Of a stretch of 64,000 nt of DNA, positions 5,977-44,507 are shown piece after piece. The position numbers and the translations under genes were made by a program. Source of the DNA: Phycisphaerales bacterium. GTDB taxonomy: Bacteria > Planctomycetota > Phycisphaerae > UBA1845. The stretch spans positions 114,071 to 178,070 of the forward strand of contig JACKHG010000005.1 in assembly GCA_020639115.1 (NCBI GenBank), written 5' to 3'. The notes below the pieces were generated by a model that was not told where the DNA came from, ran no database searches, and saw only the letters and a list, made by a program, of their open reading frames with translations. The first letter of the stretch is position 1; each line of letters opens with the position of its first letter.

Positions 5977-5979
5977 CCC

Positions 5980-9662: not shown

Positions 9663-9669
9663 GCTAATC

Positions 9670-10047: not shown

Positions 10048-10106
10048 ATGACGGTACGTCTGGGAGCCCAACCGCAACGTCCACTCGCGGATAGAGCAGA
10101 CGTCCA

Positions 10107-10177: not shown

Positions 10178-10223
10178 CTGACCCTTGTGATCTTCGCATT
10201 GTCCAGGCGGTCGAAGGGGTCGG

Positions 10224-10293
10224 GAGTCGTTTGTTGACTTCAATCCGTTGCCCGGAGGCGACACGAGGATGTGCAACGCCGCGAGAGCGACTC
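10224..10293. repeat. ~70-nt structured repeat, copy B
   Basis: Outer stem GAGUCG (10224-29) / CGACUC (10288-93) and inner stem GUUGC (10247-51) / GCAAC (10273-77). Conserved GACTTCAA and CCGGAGGCG. Confidence 0.6.
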
Positions 10294-10339
10294 GCGTCAC
10301 CCTTGATTGCCTCGCTGAGGAGCGGTTCGTTTGGTCACG

Positions 10340-10699
10340 ATGGAGACGTCGCCTGCAAACAGGCTGTTGAGATTAACGGTAATCATGAGGAGCAAGGGCT
10401 TCAGTCGCTGGACGATGCTGCACCTGATCGGTGTGTCCGTTACGCTTGTCGCGGGCTTCCTCTGGTTGACGTTGCCAGAGGGGATTGGAGGGACTACGGC
10501 GCCGCGGTACCGACTGATTGTAACACTGTGCGCTGCAATCGGCGGAGCCATGTTGGCACTTTACGCATGGCGACGTGTTCGCGACCGGCTGGCGGGGCAA
10601 TGCTGGAATTGCGGATACTGCTTGAAGGGAAACACGAGCGGCGTTTGTCCGGAGTGCGGTAGGCCGACAACGCCTGGGTCGAGCAAAGTTAACTCTTGA
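10340..10699 (+). CDS. small membrane protein with C-terminal zinc ribbon (CWNCGYCLKGNTSGVCPECG)
   Basis: Two predicted TM helices followed by a CxxCxYxLxGx5CPECG motif. The same motif occurs in 33884-34849, 40683-41393 and 42712-43047. The start is uncertain (TTG 10331, ATG 10340 or ATG 10385). Confidence 0.6.
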   Translation: METSPANRLLRLTVIMRSKGFSRWTMLHLIGVSVTLVAGFLWLTLPEGIGGTTAPRYRLIVTLCAAIGGAMLALYAWRRVRDRLAGQCWNCGYCLKGNTSGVCPECGRPTTPGSSKVNS

Positions 10700-10740
10700 G
10701 GAGTCGGCAGGGAGGAGGACGTGAAAAGAGAAAGAGCGCC

Positions 10741-10814
10741 GGGAGTCGTTCTTGAGACTTCAATTGATCCGCCGGAGGCGTCGCAACGACGCGCAGTGCG
10801 TGAATACGTCTCCC
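10741..10814. repeat. ~70-nt structured repeat, copy C
   Basis: GGGAGTCGTTCTTGAGACTTCAAT...CCGGAGGCG...GCAACGAC...CGTCTCCC. The terminal pairing GGGAG/CTCCC is retained. Confidence 0.55.
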
Positions 10815-10849
10815 GACGCCTTCGATCTGTCGTCGCCCGGGGGAAAGCA

Positions 10850-10977
10850 AAGGGAAAGCAAAGGGGCCGGGAAAGCAAAGGGGTCGGAAAGCAAAGGGGT
10901 CGGGAGTCGTTATTGCGTTATACCAAGGGAAAGCAAAGGGGTCGGGAGTCGTTATTGCGTTATACCAACGGTCAATA
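10850..10977. repeat. tandem repeat: GGAAAGCAAAG units plus two 42-bp units (GGGAAAGCAAAGGGGTCGGGAGTCGTTATTGCGTTATACCAA)
   Basis: Direct reading. The 42-bp unit carries the GGGGTCGGGAGTCGTT head of the 70-nt element. Confidence 0.8.
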
Positions 10978-11018
10978 AGGGGGCATACCAGGGAACTGCC
11001 TGCGCCGCGTGAGGGACA

Positions 11019-28090: not shown

Positions 28091-29281
28091 TCACCTCGTC
28101 ATCCGCAACACCAACACCAGCCCCAGCACAAACCCCAGCACCCACGGCAACGCATTCAACGCCGCCACCCCCAACATCACCAGCGGATGCGCCGAAACCT
28201 CCTCCGGCTGCCCTCGCCGACCCGCCGCCGCCTCCCCGAACAACGCGTCGTACGACCACTCCCGGCACGACTCCAACTCCTCCCGCATCCGGTCCGCCGT
28301 CGAAAAACGATCCGCCGACTGCGCAGCGCACGCCCGCGCAATCACCTCCTCCAGCCGGCGCGAATCCCACTTGTCCGCCGACTCGTGCACGAACGCCGGC
28401 AACTTCGGAAACGTCGCACCCGCCGGACCCGCCAGCAACTCGTGCAGCATCCGCCCCATCGCAAACGTGTCCGCCGTCAGATCCATGCACGCGTCCGGCG
28501 GCATGTACTCCGGCGTCCCCACGTGACTTGGCGTGTCCCCCACCGTCGTGATCATTCCGATGTCGCTCAGCTTCGGCTCGCGATCCACGAAAACAATGTT
28601 CGCCGGCTTGATGTCCCGATGCGCCAGCCCCACCCGGTGCAACCGCGCCAACCCCTGCAAGAGCCGCAGCACCACCTCCACCGCCACCCCCACCGAAACC
28701 GGTTTGCCGTGGATCACCTGCCGCAACGTCAACGCCCGGTACTTCGCCGGTAACGCCTCCCGCACCGGCCGCCGCGTCACGTCGTCGTCCGCCAGATCCA
28801 TCGTGTAGTAAAGTCTTTCCCCATGGATGCCCACGTGGTACACGCGCACCAGGTTCGGATGCGGCTCCACCTGCCGGCAGTAGATCTCCAGCGCCGCCAG
28901 CTCCCGGCAGGTCACGTCCGCCTCCGACAACCGCCGCAGATCGATCACCTTCAGCGCCCGGAACACCCCCACCCGGTCACGCACCGCCCACACCGTGCCG
29001 AACGCTCCCTCCCCGCACAGATGCACGCACGTGTAATCCGGAATATCCCATTCCGCCTTCGAGACCGTCGTGCCCGCACCGACCGTCGCCCCCACCGGCG
29101 CGTCCCGCACCGCCCGCCGCAGGATCCGCGCATCGAGGTCCGCATGCTGCAGCCGCGACAGCAACTCCCGGCACAGCACGCACGCCTCCACGTGCGCCAG
29201 CAACGCGTCCGCCTGCGCATCCGCGAGCCCCCCCGCCTCCAGCGCCCGCAACTGCGCCGGCTCCGGACACGGACCCGTCAC
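28091..29281 (-). CDS. Ser/Thr protein kinase with N-terminal ZAS-type (HxxxCxxC) anti-sigma-like domain and C-terminal TM anchor
   Basis: GEGAFGTVW, ALKV, HRDIKPANI and GTPEYMPPD, with N-terminal LAHVEACVLC. The GTG at 29281 overlaps the sigma stop (GTGA). The ORF-track extension to 29788 overlaps the sigma gene and is rejected. Confidence 0.82.
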   Translation of the reverse strand: MTGPCPEPAQLRALEAGGLADAQADALLAHVEACVLCRELLSRLQHADLDARILRRAVRDAPVGATVGAGTTVSKAEWDIPDYTCVHLCGEGAFGTVWAVRDRVGVFRALKVIDLRRLSEADVTCRELAALEIYCRQVEPHPNLVRVYHVGIHGERLYYTMDLADDDVTRRPVREALPAKYRALTLRQVIHGKPVSVGVAVEVVLRLLQGLARLHRVGLAHRDIKPANIVFVDREPKLSDIGMITTVGDTPSHVGTPEYMPPDACMDLTADTFAMGRMLHELLAGPAGATFPKLPAFVHESADKWDSRRLEEVIARACAAQSADRFSTADRMREELESCREWSYDALFGEAAAGRRGQPEEVSAHPLVMLGVAALNALPWVLGFVLGLVLVLRMTR

Positions 29282-29847
29282 GCCAGCCCGTCCGTCAGCT
29301 CTGCCCACTGCTGCTTCAGCTTCGCCAGCACCCGCGACTTGGCCACGTAGATCTGATTGGCTGTCATTCCCAGCGATTCGCCGATCTCCCGCACCGACCG
29401 CTCCTCCAGCACGTACATCTCGAACGCCCGGAATGTCATCGGCGCCACCTCGTGCCGGATCCGACTCAGACAATACAACAGATGCGTCCGGTTCCACTCC
29501 CGCTCCCACGAAAGCCCCGGCTCCTCCTCCCGCTGCTGCTCCCGCGCAAAATCCACCGTCCGCGCCCGCACCTCCCGCCCGTGCTTGCGCAACTGGTCGC
29601 TCACCTTGTGCTCGATCATGCCCCGCAGCCAGCCCCGGAAGCTCACCTGCCGGCGGAAACTCTGAATCCCCGTCGCGATCGCCGTCATGCACTGCTGCGC
29701 AACGTCCTCCGACTCCTCCGGCGTCAGCCCGCGCACCACCGCGTACTTCAGCAGCATCGGCCGGTATACCCGGTCGAACTCCTCCCATGACAACGCATCT
29801 TCAGGGTTCTTGATCCGGCTGAGCAGGCTCGTCCGTGTGTCGTCCAC
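29278..29847 (-). CDS. ECF-type RNA polymerase sigma factor
   Basis: Region 2 (FRGWLRGMIEHKV) and region 4 HTH (SVREIGESLGMTANQIYVAKSRVLAKLK). GTG at 29847 with a GGGAGA RBS 5 nt upstream. Confidence 0.85.
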   Translation of the reverse strand: MDDTRTSLLSRIKNPEDALSWEEFDRVYRPMLLKYAVVRGLTPEESEDVAQQCMTAIATGIQSFRRQVSFRGWLRGMIEHKVSDQLRKHGREVRARTVDFAREQQREEEPGLSWEREWNRTHLLYCLSRIRHEVAPMTFRAFEMYVLEERSVREIGESLGMTANQIYVAKSRVLAKLKQQWAELTDGLA

Positions 29848-29892
29848 CAGAGTCTCCCGGCTGACTCGCGCGCAGATTGGTCTTTGCCTTAG

Positions 29893-29901
29893 ATTATAGC
29901 A
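29893..29901 (-). promoter_or_regulatory. extended -10 promoter element TGCTATAAT upstream of the ECF sigma gene
   Basis: The minus strand reads ...gggtgTGCTATAATcta, about 46 nt upstream of the GTG start. The -35 is weak. Confidence 0.4.
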
Positions 29902-30426
29902 CACCCGCCCGCTCCCGCCGAACCCTCAATTCCAATCCCTTTCCCGCGCAGCCAATCAGATGCGCAAGATGGGAGCGCAATATCGGAGCGGGGGGGGCAA
30001 AGCCCCCCGACACCACCGCCCGAAAACCGAGGCCCGCCCGACCCCACCCGCCCCGGCCAAAACTTTTTTTCGATTCCCGTGTAAGAAATACCGCCCGACC
30101 CGCGACTCCAGGGTGGGGTGAGCGAGACAGCCGCCAACCGGCGGCCTATTCGACTCCGCGCGTCGCGAGCGTCCGGGGCGCATACCCGACCTGCGTCCCC
30201 CGCTCCGGCGCCAACCCTGCGCGCCCGACTCCTTCCCAGCCGGCGGCGCATGCGCCAGTGCCTATCCATCAGCTCGCAACTCCTCCGCATGCGCCCGCCG
30301 GCCGGACTCCCCCCGTCAGCGGGCGATTTGCAACGCACGCAGCACCTTGGTATTATTCAACCTGGACATTTAAACCCGGCGAATAACGGGGAAGAGAGAG
30401 ATGCAACCGGAAAGGAGACAATCCCA

Positions 30427-31083
30427 ATGGCATCTCGCATCCTCTTCACCATCGCCGTCGCGTCCTTCGCCGCCACCACCCACGCCGCCACCGTCAGCAT
30501 CCAGTGGCTGACCGACACCGCGTCGCAGACCATCACGACGCCGCCCAACAGCACGGTCACCGCCCAGGTGTCGCTCGACCTGATCGCGGGCGAGTCAACT
30601 GCGGGACTCATCTCGTGGTTTACCGACACCACCCCAGACCTGGAGATCGGCCAGCAGCGCACGAGCGTTCCCGGTTGGCAGACTGGCCAATATCCCGGCG
30701 ACCTCGCCGTCGCCCAATTGGCGTTCGCTGCAGACGTCCCTCTGGAAACTAATCTGAACGGGCCGCTCAGTCTCGTCCTCGGAGAGTTCGACATCATCGT
30801 CTCCGGCTCCCCCGGCACGACGCTGCCGCTCGCGCTCGATGCCTCGGGCTCGCCCTTGGGCCTGATTGATGAGGTTGGTCAGAGCTACACCTGGGATGCC
30901 CGCTACAACACCACCGTGCCGGGCTACGTGGCCTACGGCGATTTCGGAAACCCGGGCTGGGGCCACAACATCAGCTCGGGCCATCAGCCCGACCCCAACC
31001 CCCTGTTCGTCACCGTTTCCCCCGAGCCAGCCTCTGCCCTGCTGCTCGCCTGCGGAGCACTCGCCCTCATGCGCCGACGTTGA
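30427..31083 (+). CDS. PEP-CTERM sorting-domain protein
   Basis: GGAG RBS. Signal peptide MASRILFTIAVASFAATTHA. C-terminus VSPEPASALLLACGALALMRRR. Confidence 0.82.
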   Translation: MASRILFTIAVASFAATTHAATVSIQWLTDTASQTITTPPNSTVTAQVSLDLIAGESTAGLISWFTDTTPDLEIGQQRTSVPGWQTGQYPGDLAVAQLAFAADVPLETNLNGPLSLVLGEFDIIVSGSPGTTLPLALDASGSPLGLIDEVGQSYTWDARYNTTVPGYVAYGDFGNPGWGHNISSGHQPDPNPLFVTVSPEPASALLLACGALALMRRR

Positions 31084-31144: not shown

Positions 31145-31597
31145 GCAGCGAAGCGGGCGGCGGCGATCGCTCGGTGCAGCGCAAGCTGCACCGGGAGGAA
31201 AGTCCGAACTGGACAGGGCACGGTGGTTGGTAACACCAACCCGGCGCAAGCCGCGGGAAAGTGCCACAGAAAAGATACCGCCCTCGACACGCCGCAGCCC
31301 CGACATGGTCGGGGCCGACCGCGCAGCGGGCGGTTCCGCCCAGCGGAACGCGGCGAGTCAAGGGTAAGGGTGAAATGGTGCGGTAAGAGCGCACCGCGCG
31401 ATCGGTGACGGTCGCGGCAGGGTAAACCCCACCGCCAGCAAGCCCAAGCAGCAGCCGCAGGACGGCCCGTCCATTACCGGCTGCGGGTAGGGCGCTCGAG
31501 CCGGCAGGCAACTGCCGGCCCAGATGAATGATCGCCCGCCCGGCGGTCACGCGGTCGCCGGGCGAACAGAATTCGGCTTACCCGCCCGCTTCGCTGC
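31145..31597 (+). ncRNA. rnpB: RNase P RNA, bacterial type A
   Basis: Universal elements GGAGGAAAGTCCGAAC, ACAGGGCA, GGGAAAGTGCCACAGAAA, GGGTAAGGGTGAAATGGTGCGGTAAGAGCGCACC, GGTAAACCCCAC, AGATGAATGATCGCC and ACAGAATTCGGCTTA. P1 pairing is GCAGCGAAGCGGGCGG / CCGCCCGCTTCGCTGC. Confidence 0.92.
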
Positions 31598-31660
31598 CTT
31601 GATACTCCCCCCCCCCGACAACCATGCCTGTGATCTCCCCAACCGTCGCCGGCACGCCCC

Positions 31661-31688
31661 ATTCATCATTCCGCATTCATCATTCATC
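31661..31688. repeat. heptamer array ATTCATC/ATTCCGC x4 (family R1)
   Basis: Direct reading. Overlaps the stop and last codons of the minus-strand gene 31680-32234. Confidence 0.8.
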
Positions 31689-32234
31689 ATTTAGCTTTTC
31701 CCCATCACCCGCCGCCCCCGCGTCCAACCCGACGCCGTAAATCTGCCGCACCATCTCGTCAAAATAACCCGGCACCGGCCGCAGCGTACCATCGTACGCC
31801 GCCCCCTTCCCCTTCTGCGCCAGCGCCGCCAACCGCACCGCCAGGTCCACCCGCCGGCTCGCCGTCTCCGCCCTCCGCTGCTCCGCGATGATCTTCGAAA
31901 CCCGCGTGATCTTCGCCAGCGGCAGCGCATTGACCGCACCCCGCAACGCGTCGAACAGGTCGCAGAGCACGCAGTAATACGCTCCCTGCCCCACCCGATC
32001 GCCTTCACGCGGCGCCTGGTTCAACGCACCCAGCGCATCATTCAGCACCGCCCCCACGAGCTTCAGACACGCCCGGTGCGCCTGCGTCTGCTTCAACGTC
32101 GGACCGCGGCGTGAACGCTTCTCCTCCCGCCCGGTGTGCGCCTCGCACCCCGTCGACTTCCCGTCGCCGCGCGCCGCCGTAGGACCCTGCGCCTCCTGCG
32201 CCTCGACCGGCTCCTCACTGCGTTGCCTGCTCAT
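31680..32234 (-). CDS. hypothetical protein P5 (184 aa): charged disordered N-terminus plus helical core
   Basis: MSRQRSEEPVEAQ...ACLKLVGAVLNDALGALNQ...YYCVLCDLFDALRG. ATGA overlap with the upstream gene. G3-rich codons like other minus-strand host genes here. Confidence 0.7.
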   Translation of the reverse strand: MSRQRSEEPVEAQEAQGPTAARGDGKSTGCEAHTGREEKRSRRGPTLKQTQAHRACLKLVGAVLNDALGALNQAPREGDRVGQGAYYCVLCDLFDALRGAVNALPLAKITRVSKIIAEQRRAETASRRVDLAVRLAALAQKGKGAAYDGTLRPVPGYFDEMVRQIYGVGLDAGAAGDGEKLNDE

Positions 32235-32548
32235 GGGTTCATCGCCGGATCGTCGATCAGGTGGTCCGCCAGCTCCACGCCCCGGCTCGTCAACCGGAAC
32301 CACCGCTGCCGCCACGGCGTCAACCGCTCGTCCGCCTCACGCTCCGCCACCACCCGCTGGAGATATCCCTTCTCGCACAGGTACGCCAGGTCCCGCCGGA
32401 AATACTCCCACTCCAGCGCCGGAAACAAGCCCAGCAGGCTGCGCATGAGCTGCTCAGCCGGCAACGCCGTCGGATACAGCATCTTCAGCGCCACCACCGC
32501 CTCGTTGCGGATGCTCTTGATCTCCCGCGCCGTTCGCCCGTTCGCCAT
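32231..32548 (-). CDS. hypothetical protein P4 (105 aa), winged-helix-like
   Basis: MANGRTAREIKSIRNEAVVALKMLYP...EWEYFRRDLAYLCEKGYLQRV. Its ATG shares 1 nt with the upstream stop (TGATG). Confidence 0.7.
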   Translation of the reverse strand: MANGRTAREIKSIRNEAVVALKMLYPTALPAEQLMRSLLGLFPALEWEYFRRDLAYLCEKGYLQRVVAEREADERLTPWRQRWFRLTSRGVELADHLIDDPAMNP

Positions 32549-32886
32549 CACTCCCGCTCCTTTCCCCCCGCGCCGCGCACCCGCGGCTCCCACCGCGCGT
32601 CCGCCTGCAACTCCGTCACCAGCGCCGCCATCTGCTCGATCCGGCCCCGCGCCCACATGCTCTCCCGCAACCATTCCTCCTTCGTCGCGTAGTCCCGCCG
32701 CACCTCCGTCACCTCGTCGCGCAACCGCTCCATTGTGGATTCCACAATCGCCGCCCGCGCCCCCGCCTCGGCCCGCGCCGCCCGCAACTGCTCCCGCAGG
32801 CCCTTCACGTACAGCACCAGCATCGCCAGCGGCGCCCCCGCGACGGCGGCCAGCACCCCGGCGTCGTATCCCGCGCCCGCGACCAT
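32548..32886 (-). CDS. hypothetical protein P3 (112 aa): N-terminal TM helix plus coiled coil
   Basis: MVAGAGYDAGVLAAVAGAPLAMLVLYV followed by heptad-like LREQLRAARAE...RRDYATKEEWLRE. The ATG at 32886 (or GTG at 32889) overlaps the upstream stop. Confidence 0.7.
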   Translation of the reverse strand: MVAGAGYDAGVLAAVAGAPLAMLVLYVKGLREQLRAARAEAGARAAIVESTMERLRDEVTEVRRDYATKEEWLRESMWARGRIEQMAALVTELQADARWEPRVRGAGGKERE

Positions 32887-33152
32887 CACGCCGGCCCCCG
32901 CCCCGCGAGCACCACGTCCAGCACCTGCCCCACCAGGTCCAGAAAACCCCGCACGGTCACCGCCTCGACCCGGCCTGCCGCGAGCTCCTGCCGGAAACGC
33001 TGCATCACCGCGTCGTCCGCGAGCCGCCGCACCGCCGTCTCCCGCGGCGGCCCACTTAAGACTTCCCCAATCGCGTCCTCACCGCCCGCCACGCCGGGAA
33101 CCGCTCCGTCCAACCGGCTCAACAACGCGTCCAACTCCGCCAGCGCACTCAT
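32886..33152 (-). CDS. hypothetical protein P2 (88 aa), acidic and helical
   Basis: MSALAELDALLSRLDG...VMQRFRQELAAGRVEAV. ATGA overlap with the upstream gene. Confidence 0.65.
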   Translation of the reverse strand: MSALAELDALLSRLDGAVPGVAGGEDAIGEVLSGPPRETAVRRLADDAVMQRFRQELAAGRVEAVTVRGFLDLVGQVLDVVLAGRGPA

Positions 33153-33700
33153 GACCTGCCCTCCTCCGCACTTCCCGTCACCATGCTCCGCCCGACCGCA
33201 GGCTCCGCCGCCTGCCCAGCCGCCTCACCCGCCTGCGCGTCGCGCCGCGCCTCCAACACCCGCCGCAGGTACGCCCGCGCCTCCTCGTCCAGCGCCAGAC
33301 CCTCCAGCGCAAAGCCCCGCAGATCCCGCGCCACCTCCTGCGCCAACCCCACGTTCTCCCGCGCCGCGTCGTACCGCGCCCACGCCACCCGCCGATCCGC
33401 ACGCACCCGCGCCAGCGCCGCCCCGAACGCATCCGCGTGCGCCGCCATCGCCGCGTCGTCCGCATGATCCCGACGCGTCCGCGCAACAAAGGCCGCCACC
33501 ACCGCCTGCTCGCGACCGTCATCCGCCCGCTCCAGATCCTCCCGGTACTCCGCGAGCGCCCGCCCCAACTCGCCCGCGAGCGCATCCAACGCGTCAGCCG
33601 CCGCCAGCTCCACCCGCGCCCGCCCGGCGCAGCCCAACGCTTCAGACCCCAACACACCCGCCACGACCACCGCCAACCATCTCGTCCGCCCCGTTCTCAT
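33149..33700 (-). CDS. hypothetical lipoprotein P1 (183 aa), all-helical and A/R/D/E-rich
   Basis: MRTGRTRWLAVVVAGVLGSEALGC lipobox. GGAGGG RBS 4 nt before the ATG at 33700. Confidence 0.65.
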   Translation of the reverse strand: MRTGRTRWLAVVVAGVLGSEALGCAGRARVELAAADALDALAGELGRALAEYREDLERADDGREQAVVAAFVARTRRDHADDAAMAAHADAFGAALARVRADRRVAWARYDAARENVGLAQEVARDLRGFALEGLALDEEARAYLRRVLEARRDAQAGEAAGQAAEPAVGRSMVTGSAEEGRS

Positions 33701-33883
33701 CGCACCCTCCATTCCCCGCGGGCAGCATCGCCCCCAACACGCAACAGCACCCCTACTACTTGACGGGCGCTTCACGTCTGCCACGGTCCTGCGCGAGAAA
33801 CCTCCCAAAAAACTCCGCCTCCCCCCGCTCCGCCCCGTCTGCTATCATGTCTCCCGCCCCAATGGAGCCCTCGGACCCGCAGC

Positions 33884-34849
33884 ATGCCCGCCCCCGACCC
33901 CCAATCACCCGACGCCCAAACACCCGACGCCCTGATGCCCGACGCCCCAACACCCGCAGACCAAGCCCCCGACGCCCAGGCGCCAACCACCGCGGCCGAC
34001 GGCGTGCCCGCAGACGTCCCGCCCGATCAGCTCCTCTGCCCCGCCTGCGACTACCGCCTCTACGGTCTCCGCGAACCCCGCTGCCCCGAGTGCGGTACCG
34101 CCTTCACCTGGGACGACGTCCGCTCCGCCGCACGCGCCGGCTCGGACATGTTCGAGCACCGCTTCCGCACCCAACCCCTCCGCTCCCTCCTGCGCACCTG
34201 GTACCGCGCCGCCTTCTGGCCCGAACGCGTCTGGCAGCGCCTCCGCGCCCTCAACCGCCCCGTTGCCCTCCCCCTCATCCTCTTCATCGCCCTCCAGGTC
34301 GTCGTCTTCACCCACGGCTACGAAGCCGTCGCCCGCGGAATCGAACCCGCCATGAACCACGTCAGCCGCTGGATGAGCGGCGCGCACGCCACCCCCCTTT
34401 GGGTATTCACCTACCGCATGGCCGTCGACTTCGACTTCTTCCCGCGCATGCTCGCCTGGTACGTGTTTACCCTCACGTTCATGCTCATCCTCGGCCGGTC
34501 CGCCTCCTACGCCGGCAGCTACTGGCGCCACGTCCTGCGCATCTACGCCCACGCCACCGCCTTCGCCGCCCTCTGCCCCGCCATCTGGTGCCTCCTCGAA
34601 GCCTGCGTCGACGCCAGCCTCTTCTTCCGCACGCCGGGCGCCGGCGCCCCCTTCACCCTCCCCTTCAACCCCCGCGCCTACTACTACCTCGCCCAGGGCA
34701 TCTTCGTCGTCGCCGTACTCGTCACCTGGTACCACCTCCGCATCGCCTACCGCGACTACCTCCACGTCCGCTACGCCGCCTTCGCAGCCGGCCTCGTCAT
34801 GCTCTCGGGCTACATCTTCGCCGACCTCACCCTCACCGTGATGCTGTAA
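33884..34849 (+). CDS. polytopic membrane protein with N-terminal zinc ribbon (CPACDYRLYGLREPRCPECG)
   Basis: P/A/D-rich leader, then the CxxCxYxLxGx5CPECG motif, then at least 5 TM helices. Divergent from the P1-P5 operon. Confidence 0.72.
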   Translation: MPAPDPQSPDAQTPDALMPDAPTPADQAPDAQAPTTAADGVPADVPPDQLLCPACDYRLYGLREPRCPECGTAFTWDDVRSAARAGSDMFEHRFRTQPLRSLLRTWYRAAFWPERVWQRLRALNRPVALPLILFIALQVVVFTHGYEAVARGIEPAMNHVSRWMSGAHATPLWVFTYRMAVDFDFFPRMLAWYVFTLTFMLILGRSASYAGSYWRHVLRIYAHATAFAALCPAIWCLLEACVDASLFFRTPGAGAPFTLPFNPRAYYYLAQGIFVVAVLVTWYHLRIAYRDYLHVRYAAFAAGLVMLSGYIFADLTLTVML

Positions 34850-37737: not shown

Positions 37738-38448
37738 CCCGGGGTAGCTGCCTGACTGCTGACGCACCGCACGTAGCACCAGCCACCCCTGCGGTAAAGT
37801 GCCGCACGCGGGGAGCTGCCGTTTTGCAGTCGCCCAGCCCCCGTGCCCGTACCAGCCGGTACGGATCACGCCATGCCAGTAGCGCCCGGCCTCCTGGACG
37901 ACCGCGGCTGGGGAGGTAAGTACGCGTTTGCTGGAATCCTGCAATCCAGCGCGTAACCCTTGCCCGAGCCCACCTTGGCGTTCGCCGCCCGCAACGTGAA
38001 CTTCGCGCTCTCGGCGATCTGCCGTCAACCGACAGCTGGCGGCCAACCGCCGGCGGTAGGCTTTTACTTTAGAGCGTGCCAGGAACAGCGAGCCCTTATA
38101 GAACACCCTCACGCCGCCGGTGTGCCGGCTCTCCGCCTGCCTGCCCAAAAACGTTGCGCCGCAAGGCCCGGGGTTGCCGGGCAGCGGCTACCCTGGGTAA
38201 TCCCGTCCATTGCGAAACCCTACTCCAACGGAGTTGCCGCGCCGTGCCCGCAGACCGCCAGCCCGCGCCGCACCGAACCCTCATGATTGTTCGACCAGGT
38301 AATCGCCCGTCAGCAGCGAGCCCGCGGACGCGCCGTGTCGCGGCAGCGGCTGCCGAGCGGGGAGATCGAAGTGCTCATCGAGGGATACCGCTGACTCCGT
38401 CGTGCACACTTCGGCACCTGATAGCTAAAGAAAAGAAGGAGGCTGAAC

Positions 38449-38655
38449 ATGCCCAGAGGCAAGCACCTCAAGGTCATCATCGCCATCGACGGATCATGCA
38501 GCGTCGATGCGCTCAACTTCACCGGGTCCGCATGCCGCGTCGCCACGCTGGAGATCACCTCCATGCTGGGCGGCGATATCACCGAACAGCACGACAGGCC
38601 CGAGGCCCGGCTGCGTGAGCGGGCCAGCCAGGCTGAGCGAGAGGGGGCACGATGA
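38449..38655 (+). CDS. small protein (68 aa), DUF2997-like by pattern
   Basis: Strong AAGGAGG RBS 6 nt upstream. MPRGKHLKVIIAIDGSCSVDALNFTGSACRVATLEITSMLGG fits the I.I..DG....v.G..G..C...T..le..LG pattern as I recall it. Confidence 0.55.
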   Translation: MPRGKHLKVIIAIDGSCSVDALNFTGSACRVATLEITSMLGGDITEQHDRPEARLRERASQAEREGAR

Positions 38656-38975
38656 CCAGGATCAGGATCGCGTCCGACGGCACGGTGCGAGGGCTGTGGA
38701 CGGACGACGTGGTCTGGCGGGCGATCGGCCAGGTCGCAGTACGTCGGGCATCGCACGTGGAATTCTCCACGCGCCGTCAGCTTTGGTACGTCCGCGACGG
38801 CCGTGTGCGCAACGCGCTTACAGCGATCGTCCAGTTCGTGCTTCGGCGGCCGTGCGGTAAGATCCTGCATTGGGCCAGCAGCCGATCGGACGCATTGGCC
38901 TGGGAGGCGGCGCACTTCGGCGTCGGCGGTCCCGGCTGGGCCCATCGTTCGCGGCAGCGCAACGCAGTGAGCTGA
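38652..38975 (+). CDS. hypothetical protein (107 aa), mobile-element-type
   Basis: ATGA overlap with the previous gene. MTRIRIASDGTVRGLWTDD...RRASHVEF...WYV. Confidence 0.5.
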   Translation: MTRIRIASDGTVRGLWTDDVVWRAIGQVAVRRASHVEFSTRRQLWYVRDGRVRNALTAIVQFVLRRPCGKILHWASSRSDALAWEAAHFGVGGPGWAHRSRQRNAVS

Positions 38976-38980
38976 CCCGC

Positions 38981-39244
38981 TTGTTTCCCACGAGACTCAA
39001 TGAAGCGTCAGGAGTCGAAGAGACGCCGCTCACGTCGAAGCAACGACAAGCCCACCTCGCTGGAGGCGGCTGCAATTGTCCTTTTTGCGGATGTCCCCAG
39101 CTCGACGGCGGACCGGTCGACGTCAACGCAGGTACTGCGGGCCAGGACATCACCCGCCTCGGCTGCAGCCGCTCCTGGCGAGACTGCTACCGGTTGGTCG
39201 AGATAGTCCTCGAACGCGAGCACGCCGGACCAGGCACGAAGTAG
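38981..39244 (+). CDS. possible small zinc-ribbon protein (87 aa, TTG start)
   Basis: In-frame TTG 6 nt after the upstream stop. ..GGCNCPFCGCPQLDGGPVDVNAGTAGQDI..W.DCYRLVEI. There is no ATG, so this is weak. Confidence 0.3.
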   Translation: MFPTRLNEASGVEETPLTSKQRQAHLAGGGCNCPFCGCPQLDGGPVDVNAGTAGQDITRLGCSRSWRDCYRLVEIVLEREHAGPGTK

Positions 39245-39689
39245 ACACGCCCCGGGCCGCCGCACGTCGTGCCCACCCGTGGGGATCGGGTTCTGATACC
39301 TGGGCGCTTCGGCCACACCAGTTCATCCCCACCATGCCCACCCTGCAGGTCGCTGGGGCCTGCCCAAGGAGAAGCGATCAGCGGCGTTCCGCCGCCCGAC
39401 CGGCAGGCCGAATCAGATCCCATCCGCTGCCGGAGATTTCTCGGTGGATTGCTACGTCATTACTACCGCGTTGCCGCGTGAGGTTCTGTCGTCGGGGCGG
39501 CTCACCCCTCCGCACAGTTCTGCTCGCCGACTGGCGACGACTCTGCTATCATGCGCGCGGTCGCGGATGGTCGGCAAAATCAACCCTGCTGCGCCGCGCG
39601 ACCACGCCTTTACGCCGCTCTCCCAAAACTCCAGACTTTGGATGGCCGGGACGTCTACATTCTGGACCCGGTCTACGTGGACCTGCACG

Positions 39690-39762
39690 GGTAAAGATAC
39701 ATGGTGGTGCCATCGAGATCACCCGAATTCGTCACGACCTTCTTCACCCGCCGGCCCAGGCC
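39690..39762 (-). pseudogene. Rhs core fragment (..GLGRRV..VVTNSGDLDGTTMYLY), truncated next to the IS
   Basis: The DNA is nearly identical to 44166-44220 of Rhs gene 43056-44507. The reading frame ends in a stop right after YLY. Confidence 0.6.
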
Positions 39763-39798
39763 TCGTTGAAGGCGAGAGGGTGGTTTGCACGCCCCCCT

Positions 39799-40642
39799 GA
39801 CTAGAACCTATCCCTTTACTTGGTTTCCCATCATGAGCTGACTATCCTACTGCATGCTTAAACTCACGGACGAGCAGTTGGATTGGCTGACGGAACGGAT
39901 TCCGGATCATCAACCCAGCCCGAAGGGCGGACGACCGGCACTCGACAAGCGTCGGGCCATGCAGGGCATTTTCTGGATCCTGGACAACGGCGCCAAATGG
40001 AAGGACCTCCCCAAACGCTTCGGATCCAAGAGTGCCGTGCACCGCTGGTTCAAACGCTGGGTCGAGGACGGCGTATTTGAAAACATCATGCGTGACGCGG
40101 GTCGGCTGGTCGAGGAGCGCGACGGCTACCGGCTCTACGAGTGCTTCATCGACGCCACGTTCAGCAAGGCCAAGGGTGGTGGTGATGGCATCGGGTGCAC
40201 ACGCGCCGGAAAAGGCGTGAAAATCATGGTTCTCGTCGATGCCCGCGGCTTGCCGGTGGCGGTCGATACAGCTTCCGCGAGCCCGCATGAGTCGCAGCTG
40301 GTGCAGCGGCTCTTCGACTTCATGCTCACCAACGACGCGCCCGAGCGCATCGTCGGCGACAAGGCCTACGACAGCGATGGGCTCGATGCAGAACTCGACG
40401 CCGCGGGGATCGAACTGATCGCGCCGCATCGCCGCGATCGCAAGAAGAAGCACAAGACCCAGGACGGCCGCAGCCTGCGCCGGTACAAGCGCCGGTGGAC
40501 TGTGGAACGCACGATCGGCTGGATTCAGCACTTCCGTCGCCTGTGCATCCGCTGGGAGAAGTCGACTCTGATGTTCCAGGGTTTTCTGCATATTGGCTGC
40601 ACGCTACTATTACTCAAAGAGGTTTTGGGATAGCTTCTAGTC
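39799..40642 (+). mobile_element. IS5-family insertion sequence (844 bp)
   Basis: Terminal inverted repeats GACTAGAACCTATCCC (39799-39814) and GGGATAGCTTCTAGTC (40627-40642) match at 15 of 16 positions and enclose one transposase ORF. Confidence 0.85.
39854..40633 (+). CDS. IS5-family DDE transposase
   Basis: MLKLTDEQLDWLTERIP...GGRPALDKRRAMQGIFWILDNGAKWKDLP..FGS...VHRWFKRW...DATF...GDKAYDS...RWTVERTIGW, the classic IS5/IS427-group sequence. Confidence 0.92.
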   Translation: MLKLTDEQLDWLTERIPDHQPSPKGGRPALDKRRAMQGIFWILDNGAKWKDLPKRFGSKSAVHRWFKRWVEDGVFENIMRDAGRLVEERDGYRLYECFIDATFSKAKGGGDGIGCTRAGKGVKIMVLVDARGLPVAVDTASASPHESQLVQRLFDFMLTNDAPERIVGDKAYDSDGLDAELDAAGIELIAPHRRDRKKKHKTQDGRSLRRYKRRWTVERTIGWIQHFRRLCIRWEKSTLMFQGFLHIGCTLLLLKEVLG

Positions 40643-40682
40643 GGAAGCCAACCGAGGTCAAACTCGTCGAAATGTCCCGCAA

Positions 40683-41393
40683 CTAATGCTCGTGCATACT
40701 CTGGCGTAGGGCAAGGGTGGAAATACTCGAGACGACAATTGTAGTAGACACAACGAGGAAGAACCCCATCGCTAGGAGGCGTAGGTTCGGCGCGAGCAGT
40801 GGAATGCCCTGAGCAACGTGCCGGCCTATTACTGCAGTTGCAACGAGGCCCCCAAGCAACGCGCCAAACGCTGTTCGATTTCTCCGTGCTCGTAATCGCC
40901 AAAATGTAGTATGCGTTGGCATAGGCCGATACAAATCTCTGCCACACTCGGGACACACGCAGCTTTGGTTCCCCAGTAGACAATAGCCACACTGACAAGT
41001 GGGCTCATTAGGTCGCGACCGAGGCCAATATCCTGTGGCGATGAGGCAGAAACCTGATAGCAGAAACGGCCATAGGGGGTAAGAGTCGATCCATCCACGA
41101 CCCTGCTCTCCAAGCCTTGGCCACCAAACTGTGCTTTCCCCATCGACCCAGCCTGCCCAAATGTGCTTGCCATTCCAACCAAAAGAACCGTGGGCAATCA
41201 TCACTCCTCCAGGAACAAGTCCCACAACAACTCCATCAGGCACTTGGACATACCCGAAGGTAATGAAAAAACTGCTGGCGAACAGCAAGCAGAGAAAGAG
41301 AAAGGCGGTAATTCGTACGACGCCCTGCGCACGGGGTTCGACATGGGTCTCTTTCCGAACGAACGAGTTCATAGATGCAACCGATCGTAGCAA
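40683..41393 (-). CDS. membrane protein with internal zinc ribbon (CQCGYCLLGNQSCVCPECG); candidate immunity partner of the upstream Rhs-CT
   Basis: Lies 93 nt downstream of Rhs cassette 41487-42740. GC is about 50%. TM helices flank the motif. Confidence 0.6.
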   Translation of the reverse strand: MLRSVASMNSFVRKETHVEPRAQGVVRITAFLFLCLLFASSFFITFGYVQVPDGVVVGLVPGGVMIAHGSFGWNGKHIWAGWVDGESTVWWPRLGEQGRGWIDSYPLWPFLLSGFCLIATGYWPRSRPNEPTCQCGYCLLGNQSCVCPECGRDLYRPMPTHTTFWRLRARRNRTAFGALLGGLVATAVIGRHVAQGIPLLAPNLRLLAMGFFLVVSTTIVVSSISTLALRQSMHEH

Positions 41394-41486
41394 TATCGAT
41401 ATTTCCTCTTGTTTCTACAAATACACCGGTTCGTCGCCCGTGCGAGACTTATTGAGTTCGGCTGTACAGTTTGTATCCATCGCAGA

Positions 41487-42740
41487 TCAGACCCCTGGAG
41501 GAAAGCTTGGTGGCGTAGCTGGAGAGGTCTTGTTTGGCGTATTGTTATCGTTGAAGCAGCTCCATGCCCCTGGACAATTCCAGCTTGTAGGGGCTGAATC
41601 CCTCCACTCGGTGCTCTCTTCGCATCCGCAAACGGTCACGTTCTTTTGCTTGCATTTGCTGTTCCTGGCAACATGTTCGGCTTGCCCATTCGTGCCTCCT
41701 GGACCATCTCTCCCCGACTGACAACTCAGGAAATTGATCGTACCGCCGTCCTTCATCTTTCCACATAATGTGCCCGCTGGAATAGTGCTGGGAGGTCGTG
41801 AGTTCCCGCACCTTACGTACCCTCCGCCGCCAGTGCAACCGTGGGCCCCAATGTCAAGTCTGTCGGCCGAGTCATCCGTTATCTTATTTAGATAATCTTG
41901 GCACTTTGCGCACTTATCGAAAGGCCAAGATTGATCGTATCCAGAGACCTGTCCGAAACCAGGCGTAGAACCTTCATCATAGAATAGGATACTTGTGTGC
42001 CCAGACCAATCGGTTCGGGCAAGTGGACTGGCTGCGGTGGCGACATACAAGTTTTGACCGTCGGCGTATCCGCTACGGGCTACGTGAGATTCGATCAGTG
42101 GATCCCTCTGCATAAAACGCTTCGCCCGCGGCGAATACTGCCGCGCCCGGTTCTGATACGACCCGATTTCCGGATCGAGCACCAGCCCTTGGTGGGCAAA
42201 GAGGTTGCTGCGGCGGCTGTGGGTGGCGGCGGGGACGCGCTGCAGCTCGGTGTCGCTGTTGAGGGTGGCAATGTAGGCGGCGATGGCCGTCTGATCGGCG
42301 CTGTCCACCACGCCGTCGGCATTGGCGTCCAGCCGGCGGCAGTCGCCGCTTGCGGCGCCAGAGCACGTGCCATTTGTCGTCACAGCGTAGTCGTCGTCGT
42401 CCACGTCGCCGTCGTCGTCGTAATCGAACGGGTGGGCCGCCACGACCGCCTCCAGCTCGCCGTACGGGCTGTACCAGTAGCGCTCGATCACCCGGCCGGT
42501 GAGGTCGGTCAGCGCGGTGACGTTCCAGTTGGCGTCCTGGGACGCGTACAGCCGGCCGAGGTCCTTCACCCTCAGGCCGACGACCTCGTCGATGTAGCGC
42601 GTGCCATGGTACACCTGCACCTCCACGTTCCCCAAGCCGTCGAAAGTGCCATGACCCCACTGAGCATTCGGTTGGCCATTGTCAGAGCTCAGAACCATAC
42701 TGCGCCAGTGGTCAGGTTTCCCGATCGATCGGCGTTCCAC
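41487..42740 (-). CDS. orphan (5'-truncated) Rhs repeat-associated core plus variable Cys-rich C-terminal domain (CT1)
   Basis: YD repeats, then ..YWYSPYGE.., then the core end FAHQGLVLDPEIGSYQNRARQYSPRAKRFMQRDPL, then a low-GC unique tail. At 417 aa it is far shorter than full-length Rhs. Confidence 0.78.
   Translation of the reverse strand: MERRSIGKPDHWRSMVLSSDNGQPNAQWGHGTFDGLGNVEVQVYHGTRYIDEVVGLRVKDLGRLYASQDANWNVTALTDLTGRVIERYWYSPYGELEAVVAAHPFDYDDDGDVDDDDYAVTTNGTCSGAASGDCRRLDANADGVVDSADQTAIAAYIATLNSDTELQRVPAATHSRRSNLFAHQGLVLDPEIGSYQNRARQYSPRAKRFMQRDPLIESHVARSGYADGQNLYVATAASPLARTDWSGHTSILFYDEGSTPGFGQVSGYDQSWPFDKCAKCQDYLNKITDDSADRLDIGAHGCTGGGGYVRCGNSRPPSTIPAGTLCGKMKDGGTINFLSCQSGRDGPGGTNGQAEHVARNSKCKQKNVTVCGCEESTEWRDSAPTSWNCPGAWSCFNDNNTPNKTSPATPPSFPPGV
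42110..42633. repeat. 524-bp Rhs-core duplication, copy 1
   Basis: Collinear with 43613-44136 at equal length and roughly 90% identity by eye. Confidence 0.8.
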
Positions 42741-43047
42741 ATTCTGGACAGATCCCGCTCACATTCCCTACCAGACTGTATTGACAAGTTTGACAGTACT
42801 GGCCGCGCGAGCACAAGTTCTTCCATCGAAGCGCTACATATACTCTACGTGAAACAAGGTATGCGATCGGGACAGCGACGAGGGGGCTAACCACCGCAGC
42901 GATATCAAAACGAACCTCCAAGCTGCCAAGTACGACAAGTGGAATGCCGACAATCAGCCAACAGCTCACTGCGAATACGATAATGGAACATGCAGCTGAC
43001 ACATGTCTCGAGAGTCGGGATTGCTTGGCTGTATCGCGTGTCGACAT
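42712..43047 (-). CDS. small membrane protein with C-terminal zinc ribbon (CQTCQYSLVGNVSGICPECG); candidate immunity partner
   Basis: Starts 9 nt after the stop of Rhs gene 43056-44507. Two TM helices. Its 3' end overlaps the annotated start of the next Rhs cassette by 29 nt. Confidence 0.62.
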   Translation of the reverse strand: MSTRDTAKQSRLSRHVSAACSIIVFAVSCWLIVGIPLVVLGSLEVRFDIAAVVSPLVAVPIAYLVSRRVYVALRWKNLCSRGQYCQTCQYSLVGNVSGICPECGTPIDRET

Positions 43048-43055
43048 AATTCAGT

Positions 43056-44507
43056 CTATTCCATGCAGCACCTATTCATAACGTCCTCCGCAGCATTAAT
43101 GCAATTCCTCCAGGGACGCCAACTTTGGTGCTCGTCCCACCACGCCATCTCCCAGCCAACGCAAGTCGCAATCTCGTTGCAGCTCATACTGTTGCAGGGC
43201 TTACCTGCACCTTGATGTGGACTACTTGATCCAGTATTCCTGACCTTCAGCGTGCGACAAGTCGTAAGCGCATTGTGAGTACATGAAAACCACCCAACGG
43301 GAAAACTGTAGCACGTAACGCCGCCACCAGGCTCGTCGGCTTCAAGCCAAGTATGTCCGACGATGAGGGTCTCAATCGCGTCTGCCCACCTTCGACACTT
43401 CCTAATGCCGCATTCGCGCCGTTGATCCGGAAGCCCATCTCCATTGACATCATCGGCATCAGATTGCTGCTGGTCCGAATTGACCGACGTAACTGAATAC
43501 GTTCTGTCATACCCATTCGCAATCCACCCATCAGATCGGCCGCTTGCAGCGACGGTGGGCTGGCTCTCGAGAGTCTGTCCCGCCTTGGTTGCTAGGGCCC
43601 AAGTATGGCGTTGCATAAACCGCTTCGCCCCGGGCGCATACTGCCGCGCCCGGTTCTGATACGACCCGATCTCCGGATCGAGCACCAGGCCCTGGTGGGC
43701 GAAGAGGTTGCCGCGACGGCTGTGGGTGGCGGCTGGCACGCGTTGCAGCTCGGTGTCGCTGTCCAGCGTGGCGAGGTACGCGGCGACGGCCGTGCGGTCG
43801 GCACCGTCCAGCACGCCGTCGGCGTTGGCGTCCAGCCGGCGGCAGTCGCCGGTGGCTGAGCCGCTGCACGTACCGTTGGTGGTCACGGCGTAATCGTCGG
43901 CGTCCACGTCGCCGTCGTCGTCGTAATCGAACGGGTGGGCCGCCACGACGGCCTCCAGCTCGCCGTACGGGCTGTACCAGTAGCGCTCGATCACCCGGCC
44001 GGTGAGGTCGGTCAGCGCGGTGACGTTCCAGTTGGCGTCCTGGGACGCGTACAGCCGGCCGAGGTCCTTCACCCTCAGGCCGACGACCTCGTCGATGTAG
44101 CGTGTGCCGTGGTACACCTGCAGCTCCACGTTCCCCGAGCCGTCCCGCGTCTCGATGATCTGCTGCCCATGGTAAAGATACACGGTGGTGCCATCGAGAT
44201 CACCCGAATTCGTCACGACCTGAGCGCTCCCGCCTTGGTCGCGTTCAGTCACCCGCCGGCCCAGGCCGCCGAGAGCGACTATCTGGATGACCACCTCCTT
44301 CACGCTCCCGCCTTGGTCGGGTTCAGCATTCAGTGTGGCTTTTGACCCACCCCAGACACTCCGTCCTCCTTTGCCTCCTTGTTCAAGCCATGCCGTTGCC
44401 GCCTCAGCGTACTCTGCGTGACGCGGACAACAGGTGCATTCCGGATGCGAGGCGCAAGCCCGGCGCCGGCAACGATTTACGGTGAGAAATGCCGGATTGG
44501 TGGCCAA
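43056..44507 (-). CDS. orphan (5'-truncated) Rhs repeat-associated core plus different Cys-rich C-terminal domain (CT2)
   Basis: Same core as 41487-42740 up to ..AKRFMQR, then a divergent tail (HTWALATKAG...NRCCME). The N-terminal ~60 aa are of doubtful coding quality. Confidence 0.75.
   Translation of the reverse strand: MATNPAFLTVNRCRRRACASHPECTCCPRHAEYAEAATAWLEQGGKGGRSVWGGSKATLNAEPDQGGSVKEVVIQIVALGGLGRRVTERDQGGSAQVVTNSGDLDGTTVYLYHGQQIIETRDGSGNVELQVYHGTRYIDEVVGLRVKDLGRLYASQDANWNVTALTDLTGRVIERYWYSPYGELEAVVAAHPFDYDDDGDVDADDYAVTTNGTCSGSATGDCRRLDANADGVLDGADRTAVAAYLATLDSDTELQRVPAATHSRRGNLFAHQGLVLDPEIGSYQNRARQYAPGAKRFMQRHTWALATKAGQTLESQPTVAASGRSDGWIANGYDRTYSVTSVNSDQQQSDADDVNGDGLPDQRRECGIRKCRRWADAIETLIVGHTWLEADEPGGGVTCYSFPVGWFSCTHNALTTCRTLKVRNTGSSSPHQGAGKPCNSMSCNEIATCVGWEMAWWDEHQSWRPWRNCINAAEDVMNRCCME
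43613..44136. repeat. 524-bp Rhs-core duplication, copy 2
   Basis: See 42110-42633. Confidence 0.8.

Follow-up and report, generated by a model that had tools for sequence, protein, structure and literature searches.

In phage Mu, three small genes stand side by side ahead of the large terminase (TerL) gene; they encode Mup25, a releasin of the DUF2730 family, Mup26, a hypothetical protein, and Mup27, the small terminase (TerS). DUF2730 proteins have been reported only from transposable phages and prophages (PMC9239132). The Mu gp25 protein lies in the membrane with its N terminus outside and its C terminus inside (N-out/C-in), and it releases a signal-arrest-release (SAR) endolysin, the only DUF2730 activity that has been tested; for most DUF2730 types the endolysin partner is of a non-SAR kind, and the role of these types is untested (PMC9239132). 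Here we analyze a stretch of 64,000 nucleotides (nt) from a Phycisphaerales bacterium (contig JACKHG010000005.1, positions 114,071 to 178,070; hereafter the window), in which five adjacent minus-strand genes, P1 to P5, form a cassette. Its last three members resemble the phage block in order and size: P3, P4 and P5 have 112, 105 and 184 amino acids (aa), Mu gp25, gp26 and gp27 have 99, 96 and 191 aa, and gp20, gp21 and gp22 of Bacillus phage BalMu-1 have 90, 105 and 184 aa. Our analysis shows that P3 and P4 are remote homologues of the corresponding phage proteins, and the cassette is maintained by selection across the lineage.

The order of a transmembrane (TM)/coiled-coil gene, gp26, gp27 and TerL was found in 125 of 133 phage loci; in six of the others TerL was not detected, and in two the TM/coiled-coil gene was not. 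Carriers of the block range in G+C from 0.26 to 0.61 and include phages of Firmicutes and Proteobacteria, with the same late-operon position in every case. In BalMu-1 the region is annotated as a late activator, gp20 ("lipoprotein"), gp21, gp22 (DUF3486/Mu-gp27-like), large terminase, portal and head morphogenesis protein. In terms of PHROG families, BalMu-1 gp20 is phrog_462 (E 1.7e-25), gp21 phrog_436 and gp22 phrog_426, and Mu gp26 (7e-43) and gp27 are phrog_436 and phrog_426, respectively. The weak PHROG matches of the P3, P4 and P5 families point to the same three, phrog_462, phrog_436 and phrog_426. In the BalMu-1 gp20 protein itself (locus L089, 5736-6008), a TM helix at the N terminus precedes K-rich sequence and a coiled coil. 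Because of this layout, and of the homology between the BalMu-type and the Mu-type (gp25/DUF2730) TM/coiled-coil families (hhalign 99.4%), the "lipoprotein" label of gp20 and phrog_462 looks wrong; they are more plausibly N-out/C-in membrane proteins of the releasin superfamily.

For the comparison with other genomes, a species scan with one genome per species identified 99 genomes that encode a P4 relative, from which 80 loci were fetched; iterative hidden Markov model (HMM) searches were then run on the six-frame open reading frames (ORFs) of 89 loci in all.

Remote homology of P3 and P4 to Mu-like late proteins

The most conserved member of the cassette is P4. Its AlphaFold2 model (predicted local distance difference test score, pLDDT, 91; predicted template-modeling score, pTM, 0.83) is a winged helix of the topology H-b-H-H-b-wing-b-H, and in Foldseek searches MarR, PadR, AspA and RTP came out on top (probability 1.0, template-modeling score 0.55-0.63). 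Basic residues in the recognition helix and in the wing are invariant. Membership of a described winged-helix family was not detected at the sequence level, with E ~0.02 for the best Pfam families (HTH_DeoR and HTH_45) and E 0.5 or worse for the best PDB profiles, and a Foldseek search against PDB and BFVD confirmed the winged helix without singling out gp26.

Profile comparisons were more specific. The P4 family aligned with BalMu-1 gp21 (hhalign 94%, E 1.4e-7), with a set of five phage gp26-like proteins (97.0%, E 9.5e-11), with 30 non-redundant phage sequences (98.3%, E 1.1e-14) and with a Mu-seeded profile (97.9%, E 6.4e-13), over 86-98 columns, and reciprocal hmmsearch gave significant values either way (E 2e-8, and 5e-13 when P4 was searched with the phage HMM). 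A tblastn search of cultured phages with P4 returned an insignificant, end-to-end match to BalMu-1. As the PHROG model scores the P4 of the window at only E 0.023, its sole PHROG match, membership of phrog_436 is remote. The position of the gene agrees with the gp26 family as well, whose members have about 93-107 aa and are encoded between the TM/coiled-coil and gp27 genes; P4 lies with its 105 aa between P3 and P5, and the phage arrangement was seen in 125-131 of 133 loci. A late operon that continues into large terminase and portal genes was seen neither in the window nor in the 80 loci. Taken together, P4 is a remote homologue of Mu gp26 and BalMu-1 gp21 (phrog_436).

The P3 protein has a single N-terminal TM helix, starting at about residue 7, and a long coiled coil. 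Across the family, the mean number of K/R residues is 0.02 before the helix and 2.5 after it, which places the coiled coil in the cytoplasm (N-out/C-in); an N-terminal TM helix in this orientation with a cytoplasmic C-terminal domain is also what characterizes a releasin. The motif R-D-Y-x-T-K-E-E-W-L-R-E is nearly invariant in the family alignment. The P3 family aligned with the phage TM/coiled-coil family of phrog_462 type (hhalign 96.2%, E 2.5e-9) and with a Mu-gp25-seeded profile (86.8%, E 4e-6), reciprocal hmmsearch against the phage family was significant both ways (E 1e-6 and 8e-9), and 23 of 46 P3 members had sub-threshold matches to phrog_462. Specificity was controlled with the spanin Rz, which also combines a TM helix and a coiled coil (hhalign P 0.13), and with off-diagonal family pairs, none of which was significant (P >= 0.03). 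The DUF2730 model PF10805 is not among the 25 families most matched by the 46 P3 members, and tblastn of P3 against cultured phages found nothing. In transposable phages, a releasin gene comes no more than about five genes after that of an endolysin; in the window and the loci no such neighbor of P3 was found, in a search for Mu-type Lys and Rz only. By these comparisons, P3 and the DUF2730/phrog_462 protein of Mu-like phages, whose family includes the Mu gp25 releasin, are remote homologues.

P5, a candidate small-terminase relative, and the genes P1 and P2

P5 holds the position of the small terminase gp27 (PF11985/phrog_426). It consists of a variable, charged and disordered N terminus, a helical core and a C-terminal motif LP..F..VRQIYG. 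At 50% identity its family has 309 representatives, and lengths of 220-300 aa are frequent among them. The N-terminal helix-turn-helix (HTH) of gp27 is lacking in the P5 of the window; all seven long forms inspected have it, and many others are long enough to hold one.

When P5 was compared with gp27 profiles by hhalign, P was 0.003 with all members included, 2e-4 with the seven HTH-bearing forms and 5.8e-4 with 77 long forms, in alignments that are collinear over 117-120 columns and include both HTH and core. Since the HTH-bearing set reaches P 6e-4 against the unrelated HTH of Mor/C in an HTH-only control, these P-values are by themselves no proof. An HMM derived mostly from the HTH-less core produced 62 sub-threshold matches among 7,375 phage ORFs, and 52 of the 62 were gp27 proteins, which make up 1.3% of that set. 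Only two of 41 P5 members matched phrog_426 (E 0.038), and none matched PF11985. A large terminase gene next to P5, as for gp27, was found neither in the window nor within 5 kb of the cassette in 80 genomes. A tblastn search of cultured phages with a long P5 gave nothing. A word-indexed search retrieved only P5 itself when P5 was the query, and only eight proteins when the P5 alignment was used. An exact-match look-up found P5 nowhere, and P4 only on contigs shorter than 1 kb. We regard homology of P5 and gp27 as probable, if unproven. At least two genes of the cassette, and probably three, would derive from the Mu-like block that precedes the large terminase.

The two upstream genes are of a different kind. 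P1 has a signal peptide followed by an all-helical periplasmic domain, and its lipobox Cys is invariant in the 31 aligned members (31/31), in most of them preceded by (L/V/A)-(A/G)-G and in the window within A-L-G-C; P1 thus has both the signal peptide and the lipobox Cys of a bacterial lipoprotein. The motifs EYH, DD.RE and DR are conserved in its family. P2 is acidic (isoelectric point 4.6), has no signal peptide and carries the family motif GDAID..PR.T.V.SLRD.P.V.AFR.EL.DGLIRVDT. Pfam, PHROG and PDB profile searches found no relatives of P1, and PHROG and PDB searches no consistent relatives of P2. Against 12 Mu late-region families hhalign was non-significant for both (P >= 0.086 for P1, P >= 0.11 for P2), and P1 and P2 were rejected on this ground as counterparts of the Mu spanin and gp24. 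Both are lineage-specific, with no detectable relatives outside the lineage.

Search for further phage genes

HMMs for TerL, portal, MuF, Gam, Lys, Rz and gp24 detected nothing in the window or in the 5-kb flanks of the cassette in the 80 species genomes, and those for Mor/C and GemA gave only isolated weak matches (E 0.009-0.05) to small ORFs in two loci. When all ORFs of at least 100 aa from the 133 phage loci were compared by BLAST with the window and the 80 loci, only P4 (195 matches) and P3 (8 matches) were hit. Of the hallmarks of a Mu-like prophage, those covered by the HMMs (Mor/C, GemA, Gam, portal, MuF) gave nothing significant. For capsid, tail and integrase genes no aimed search was made; ten neighboring ORFs sampled with Pfam were host-type or unmatched, and the flanks in relatives likewise consist of host-type families or of genes without a match. 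Scans of IMG/VR with patterns for the Phycisphaerae-type P4 and for the P3 motif TKEEWLRE found no relatives. Direct Pfam and PHROG scans of six window proteins yielded sub-threshold noise only, and PDB profile searches with all five families gave only coiled-coil or generic matches.

An earlier, sequence-only reading of this DNA had called all five proteins unrecognizable and had set aside their resemblance to genes of Mu-like phages. Our profile comparisons correct both points, since they indicate real, if remote, homology for P3 and P4 and likely homology for P5. Its view of a membrane component combined with a winged-helix component agrees with the topology of P3 and the model of P4. It had also stated that the 64 kb contain no terminase, portal, capsid, tail or integrase gene, and in our searches no terminase, portal or other Mu gene was found; capsid, tail and integrase genes were not specifically searched for. 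Placement of all five products in phage families inside prophages of relatives, which it had named as the outcome that would speak against a resident module, was not observed.

Conservation, architecture and selection

The five-gene order P1-P5 is shared across dozens of genomes. P4 was detected in all 89 loci, P3 in 84, P5 in 61, P2 in 57 and P1 in 56, and the invariant core of the cassette is P3 together with P4. Three architectures occur: the full set P1-P5; P1-P4 without P5 (for instance L031, with a convergent tatA-like gene after P4); and P3-P5 without P1 and P2 (for instance L074 and L024, with divergent genes directly upstream of P3). P5 is not adjacent to the core in about one third of the lineages, and P1 and P2 are not in another third or so. 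In the complete chromosome CP070790.1 (L036), a masked N/X run just downstream of P4 (about 5800-5950) restricts statements on P5.

The core is also conserved in its layout. P3 and P4 overlap by 1 nt in 41 of 80 loci and P4 and P5 share an ATGA overlap in 38 of 53, while the P1/P2 and P2/P3 junctions are variable among loci. P3 and P4 distances co-vary (Spearman 0.71). In a collection of 5.8 billion proteins we found 184 P4 relatives (clusters at 90% identity); among the 120 matches listed, nearly all have 104-110 aa and are 61-87% identical to P4. Contigs that carry P4 relatives reach 584 kb, and every named relative comes from Phycisphaerae or Planctomycetota. Where contigs are long, the five-gene order is retained and the genes to either side are ordinary metabolic or regulatory ones.

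Outside the five genes, no flanking family is common to more than 23 of 82 loci. Among about 74 informative loci, 21 have the RNase P RNA gene rnpB, the neighbor of the cassette in the window, in convergent orientation no more than 2 kb downstream, and three more have it at up to 5 kb (270-293 bits against Rfam RF00010 for the rnpB of L004-L007). Because the two are adjacent in only about one third of the lineages, and always convergent, we interpret the adjacency as synteny at the level of a single clade, do not count rnpB as part of the module and reject a functional link. Distances of rnpB and the cassette correlate only moderately (Spearman 0.32-0.43) and were not used as evidence. One locus with a full Phycisphaerae-type cassette and a convergent rnpB (L013, JANQQE010000021.1, a 666-kb contig) is labeled Alphaproteobacteria bacterium; this metagenome-assembled genome (MAG) is probably mislabeled or mis-binned.

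All five genes are under purifying selection. The ratio of nonsynonymous to synonymous substitution rates (dN/dS) was taken from close genome pairs only, since for distant pairs dS is saturated and biased by G+C at third codon positions (GC3), which makes the ratio unusable. It is lowest for P4 (0.04-0.11), and amounts to 0.13-0.45 for P3, 0.17-0.30 for P1, 0.17-0.34 for P2 and 0.19-0.27 for P5. The G+C content of the cassette follows that of its flanks (r = 0.90, n = 74, mean difference +0.013) in genomes of 0.51 to 0.71. In the window, G occupies 64-75% of the third positions of P1-P5, as in the adjacent minus-strand genes, and the composition of the cassette is host-like on this account. 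The G+C at the codon positions of P1-P5 is coding-like (GC3 0.82-0.94; GC2, at second positions, 0.44-0.57). Long ORFs on the opposite strand are not coding-like (GC2 0.72-0.73); they are artefacts of the G+C-rich sequence.

Several claims of the sequence-only reading can be judged from these data. The five minus-strand ORFs with their overlapping junctions and coding-type composition are present as it had described them (Table 1). Conservation, purifying selection and host-matched composition bear out a resident, maintained module instead of a fresh prophage scar, and the match with the host in synonymous-site composition is seen both in the third positions and in the flank G+C. The gene order, for which it had proposed a check in other genomes, is kept in dozens of Phycisphaerae/Planctomycetota genomes without being universal. 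Its picture of five genes as an obligate, self-contained unit needs revision: the conserved core is P3 and P4, some lineages have only P1-P4 or P3-P5, and overlap at every junction is no rule, as only those of P3/P4 and P4/P5 are widely conserved. Likewise, the zinc-ribbon membrane gene that it had paired with the cassette is present divergently in the window and is not a conserved neighbor in other genomes, and we rejected it as a partner.

Possible role of the cassette

We lean, without great confidence, toward the view that the cassette is a Mu-like phage module exapted in the Phycisphaerae chromosome, and that it forms a membrane-tethered DNA-binding complex. A Phycisphaerae ancestor would have kept, for cellular use, the genes of a Mu-like phage for a gp25-like protein, gp26 and, probably, gp27, with transfer from phage to host, and the P1 and P2 genes would have been added upstream in many lineages. 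Anchored in the cytoplasmic membrane, P3 would expose next to nothing on the outside, extend its coiled coil into the cytoplasm and recruit P4 to the inner membrane face, in a proportion fixed by translational coupling. DNA would be bound by the basic recognition helix and the wing of P4, and by P5 in lineages that have it, and this would create a membrane-tethered nucleoprotein complex, which P1 and P2 may couple to the envelope. We infer interactions among P3, P4 and P5, DNA binding and a cellular role; the membrane-tethered design is suggested by an anchor that faces the cytoplasm, its coupling to a constrained winged helix and a TerS-like partner. Since no endolysin, spanin, large terminase or portal accompanies the genes, the cassette would be neither a lysis cassette nor a packaging machine.

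Several observations weigh against an exapted, membrane-tethered complex. We know of no function for Mu gp26. The only tested activity of a DUF2730 protein, release of a SAR endolysin, has no obvious counterpart here, and the P3 of the window does not match PF10805 (E <= 1). For P5, the hhalign values against gp27 (P 2e-4 to 3e-3) are no better than the HTH-only control, none of the 41 members matches PF11985, and the AlphaFold2 model of a long relative is of low confidence (pLDDT 57.6), with an uninformative fold search. The complex as drawn cannot be universal, because P5 is missing beside the core in about one third of the lineages and P1 and P2 in about another third. Finally, the search for other Mu genes covered the window and 5-kb flanks of the cassette and not whole genomes, so that a terminase or capsid gene may lie elsewhere.

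In a bolder form of this view, the exapted phage block, with a releasin-type membrane anchor, a gp26 winged helix and a small-terminase-like DNA binder, would serve a core cellular machine of Phycisphaerae, for example as a membrane tether for a specific chromosomal site in chromosome segregation or division. We consider this unlikely. Conservation of P4 at a near-housekeeping level would, if it were true, imply an essential role; Phycisphaerae are, to our knowledge, a class that divides without FtsZ.

Equally improbable is a dispersed, domesticated particle system of the gene transfer agent (GTA) type, in which the cassette would be the packaging-specificity end and TerL, portal and capsid would be encoded elsewhere in the chromosome. 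The genes of known GTAs are spread over several loci, and conservation under purifying selection would fit a domesticated system. In 125 of 133 Mu-like loci, the counterparts of P4 and P5 stand immediately before TerL, and it is the small terminase that recognizes the DNA. However, TerL, portal and MuF were found neither in the window nor in the 5 kb around the cassette in 80 genomes, a TerS apart from TerL would be unusual, and the subunit in question, P5, whose homology to gp27 is unproven, is absent beside the core in about one third of the lineages.

A similarly small chance is given to an anti-phage or interference module, in which host copies of gp25, gp26 and a TerS-like protein would poison or misdirect late functions of infecting Mu-like phages, such as the initiation of packaging or the timing of lysis. 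Satellites and islands are known to redirect packaging by means of TerS-like or TerS-binding proteins, and homologues of phage late proteins without enzymes, with a fast-evolving P5, are in line with such a function. The host-matched composition, strong constraint on P4 and stable synteny with rnpB are not, the flanks do not resemble defense islands, and no Phycisphaerae-type relatives that could be targets were found in viral contigs.

Slightly less probable still is an envelope-remodeling switch, in which P3, like a releasin, would control the release or activation of a membrane-tethered cell-wall enzyme, P1 and P2 would be its partners in the envelope, and regulation would fall to P4 and P5. 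The operon does encode a lipoprotein, and P3 belongs to the wider DUF2730/phrog_462 superfamily with the topology of Mu gp25. Yet the operon and its conserved neighborhood yielded neither an endolysin nor a SAR-type hydrolase, non-SAR endolysins accompany most DUF2730 types (PMC9239132), and the extreme conservation of P4 would be left unexplained.

Lower again we place an ordinary lineage-specific regulatory operon, in which a membrane partner holds a winged-helix factor and from which phages captured their copies. A membrane partner paired with a winged-helix protein is a common regulatory design, to which the generic MarR/PadR-like fold of P4 and the fully host-like composition of the cassette would conform. 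Against capture from a host stand the wide occurrence of the block in Mu-like phages at a constant late-operon position and the restriction of the cellular form, as far as seen, to Phycisphaerae/Planctomycetota; moreover, P4 is far more conserved than typical local regulators. A decaying, functionless prophage remnant, finally, would account for the homology of P3 and P4 to phage late genes and is very improbable, being contradicted by the conservation and selection data (the same gene order in at least 80 species genomes; dN/dS well below 1 for all five genes) and at odds with intact frames, conserved P3/P4 and P4/P5 overlaps, ameliorated G+C and the lack of any other phage gene found nearby.

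Genomic context

Table 1. Positions of the cassette genes and adjacent features in the window.
Feature	Position	Strand	Basis
P1, lipoprotein, 183 aa	33149..33700	-	ORF; signal peptide and Cys24 lipobox
P2, acidic protein, 88 aa	32886..33152	-	ORF
P3, TM and coiled-coil protein, 112 aa	32548..32886 (ATG start) or 32548..32889 (GTG start)	-	ORF
P4, winged-helix protein, 105 aa	32231..32548	-	ORF
P5, 184 aa	31680..32234	-	ORF
Divergent intergenic region between P1 and the zinc-ribbon membrane gene	33701..33883		Sequence inspected
rnpB (RNase P RNA)	31150..31596	+	Rfam RF00010, 269.8 bits

On the coding strand the junctions read ATGA (P1/P2), GTGATG (P2/P3), TGATG (P3/P4) and ATGA (P4/P5), and NCBI lists P4 and P5 as H6816_05295 and H6816_05290, on a 251-kb contig of a Phycisphaerales MAG. 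The P5 stop is 84 nt from the convergent rnpB. A direct repeat, CATTCATCATT (31660-31691, ATGA-rich on the coding strand), overlaps this stop and lies in the 84-nt spacer toward the rnpB 3' end. The divergent region upstream of P1 presumably holds the operon promoter; consensus scans for sigma-70-type promoters and for terminators found nothing, other promoter types being outside the scan. There are no tRNA genes in the window.

The gene order leading to the cassette is SelA, an FG-GAP protein, a Ser/Thr kinase, an extracytoplasmic function (ECF) sigma factor, a PEP-CTERM protein and rnpB; beyond it follow the zinc-ribbon membrane protein, a glycosyltransferase-like protein and an FkbM methyltransferase. 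The zinc-ribbon gene (33884-34849, plus strand), divergent from P1, encodes a polytopic membrane protein with weak DZR matches (E 2e-4), and 15-nt tandem repeats at 33893-33950 encode PDAxx peptide repeats at its start. The protein encoded at 30118-31083 (plus strand) ends in a PEP-CTERM-type anchor (..PEPASALLLACGALALMRRR). Just upstream of it, the ORFs of the ECF sigma factor (29278-29904) and the Ser/Thr kinase (28091-29788), both on the minus strand, overlap in different frames.

Further from the cassette, the Acido-Lenti-1 small RNA family (RF01687) matches at 123-169 on the minus strand (44.5 bits, with an Rfam gathering score of 37). The G+C content drops to 0.52-0.61 at 40000-44000, from mostly 0.63-0.75 elsewhere, and this part may be a foreign island; the nearby ORFs 38310-38945 (minus strand) and 39076-39804 (plus strand) have no Pfam match. 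Strand asymmetry is extremely strong over 1-37000, compared with 37000-64000. Plus-strand GC skew per kb is -0.13 to -0.41 over 1-10000 and 14000-37000, +0.05 to +0.21 at 10000-14000, about zero from 37000 and mostly slightly positive beyond 50000. As third codon positions are G-rich in minus-strand genes (about 64-75% G) and C-rich in plus-strand genes (56-77% C), the strand bias of the window tracks the DNA strand and not gene orientation.

Comparison with known systems

The phage families concerned (PF10805, phrog_462, phrog_436, PF11985/phrog_426) are already known, as is the domestication of phage genes. What is new is a stand-alone chromosomal block without terminase or lysis enzymes, kept by selection across a lineage, to which two genes were added; a full-text literature search found no description of such a cassette. 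Phycisphaerae would thus have recruited phage late proteins for a cellular role and combined them with a lipoprotein and a small acidic protein. Because a lineage without endolysin and terminase has long kept the P3/P4-type pair, with its winged helix under strong constraint, the pair would have a function independent of these enzymes, which bears on its role in Mu-like phages as well. Names also become available for several sets of products that Planctomycetota MAGs list as "hypothetical proteins" (for P4, 184 clusters at 90% identity; for P5, 309 representatives at 50%).

Among cellular proteins, P4 shares its fold with MarR/PadR-type proteins, including AspA and RTP, and no sequence-level membership. 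The block gp25-gp26-gp27 of Mu (NC_000929, 11718-12891) is like P3-P5 in order, sizes and packed or overlapping junctions. In contrast to the cassette, it follows endolysin, spanin and gp24 and precedes large terminase and portal; identity is only about 25%, P3 and P5 fall short of PF10805 and PF11985, and the P5 of the window lacks the N-terminal HTH. The best-matching phage version is gp20-gp21-gp22 of BalMu-1 (NC_030945, 11799-12922), which has overlapping junctions, a gp21 that aligns end to end with P4, a gp20 that aligns with P3 across the TM helix and E-R-D..Y-x-T, and a gp22 of the same 184 aa as P5. This block, however, is embedded in a complete transposable phage, with the late activator on one side and TerL, portal and MuF on the other, and its gp22 is a clear member of PF11985 (E 2.9e-19), whereas P5 is not. 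With GTAs and tailocins the cassette has in common phage-derived genes fixed in a lineage, host-like composition and purifying selection. Unlike these systems, which keep structural or enzymatic genes and make particles, it retains no more than two or three late proteins, all of them small and non-enzymatic, and a lipoprotein and a small acidic protein have joined them.

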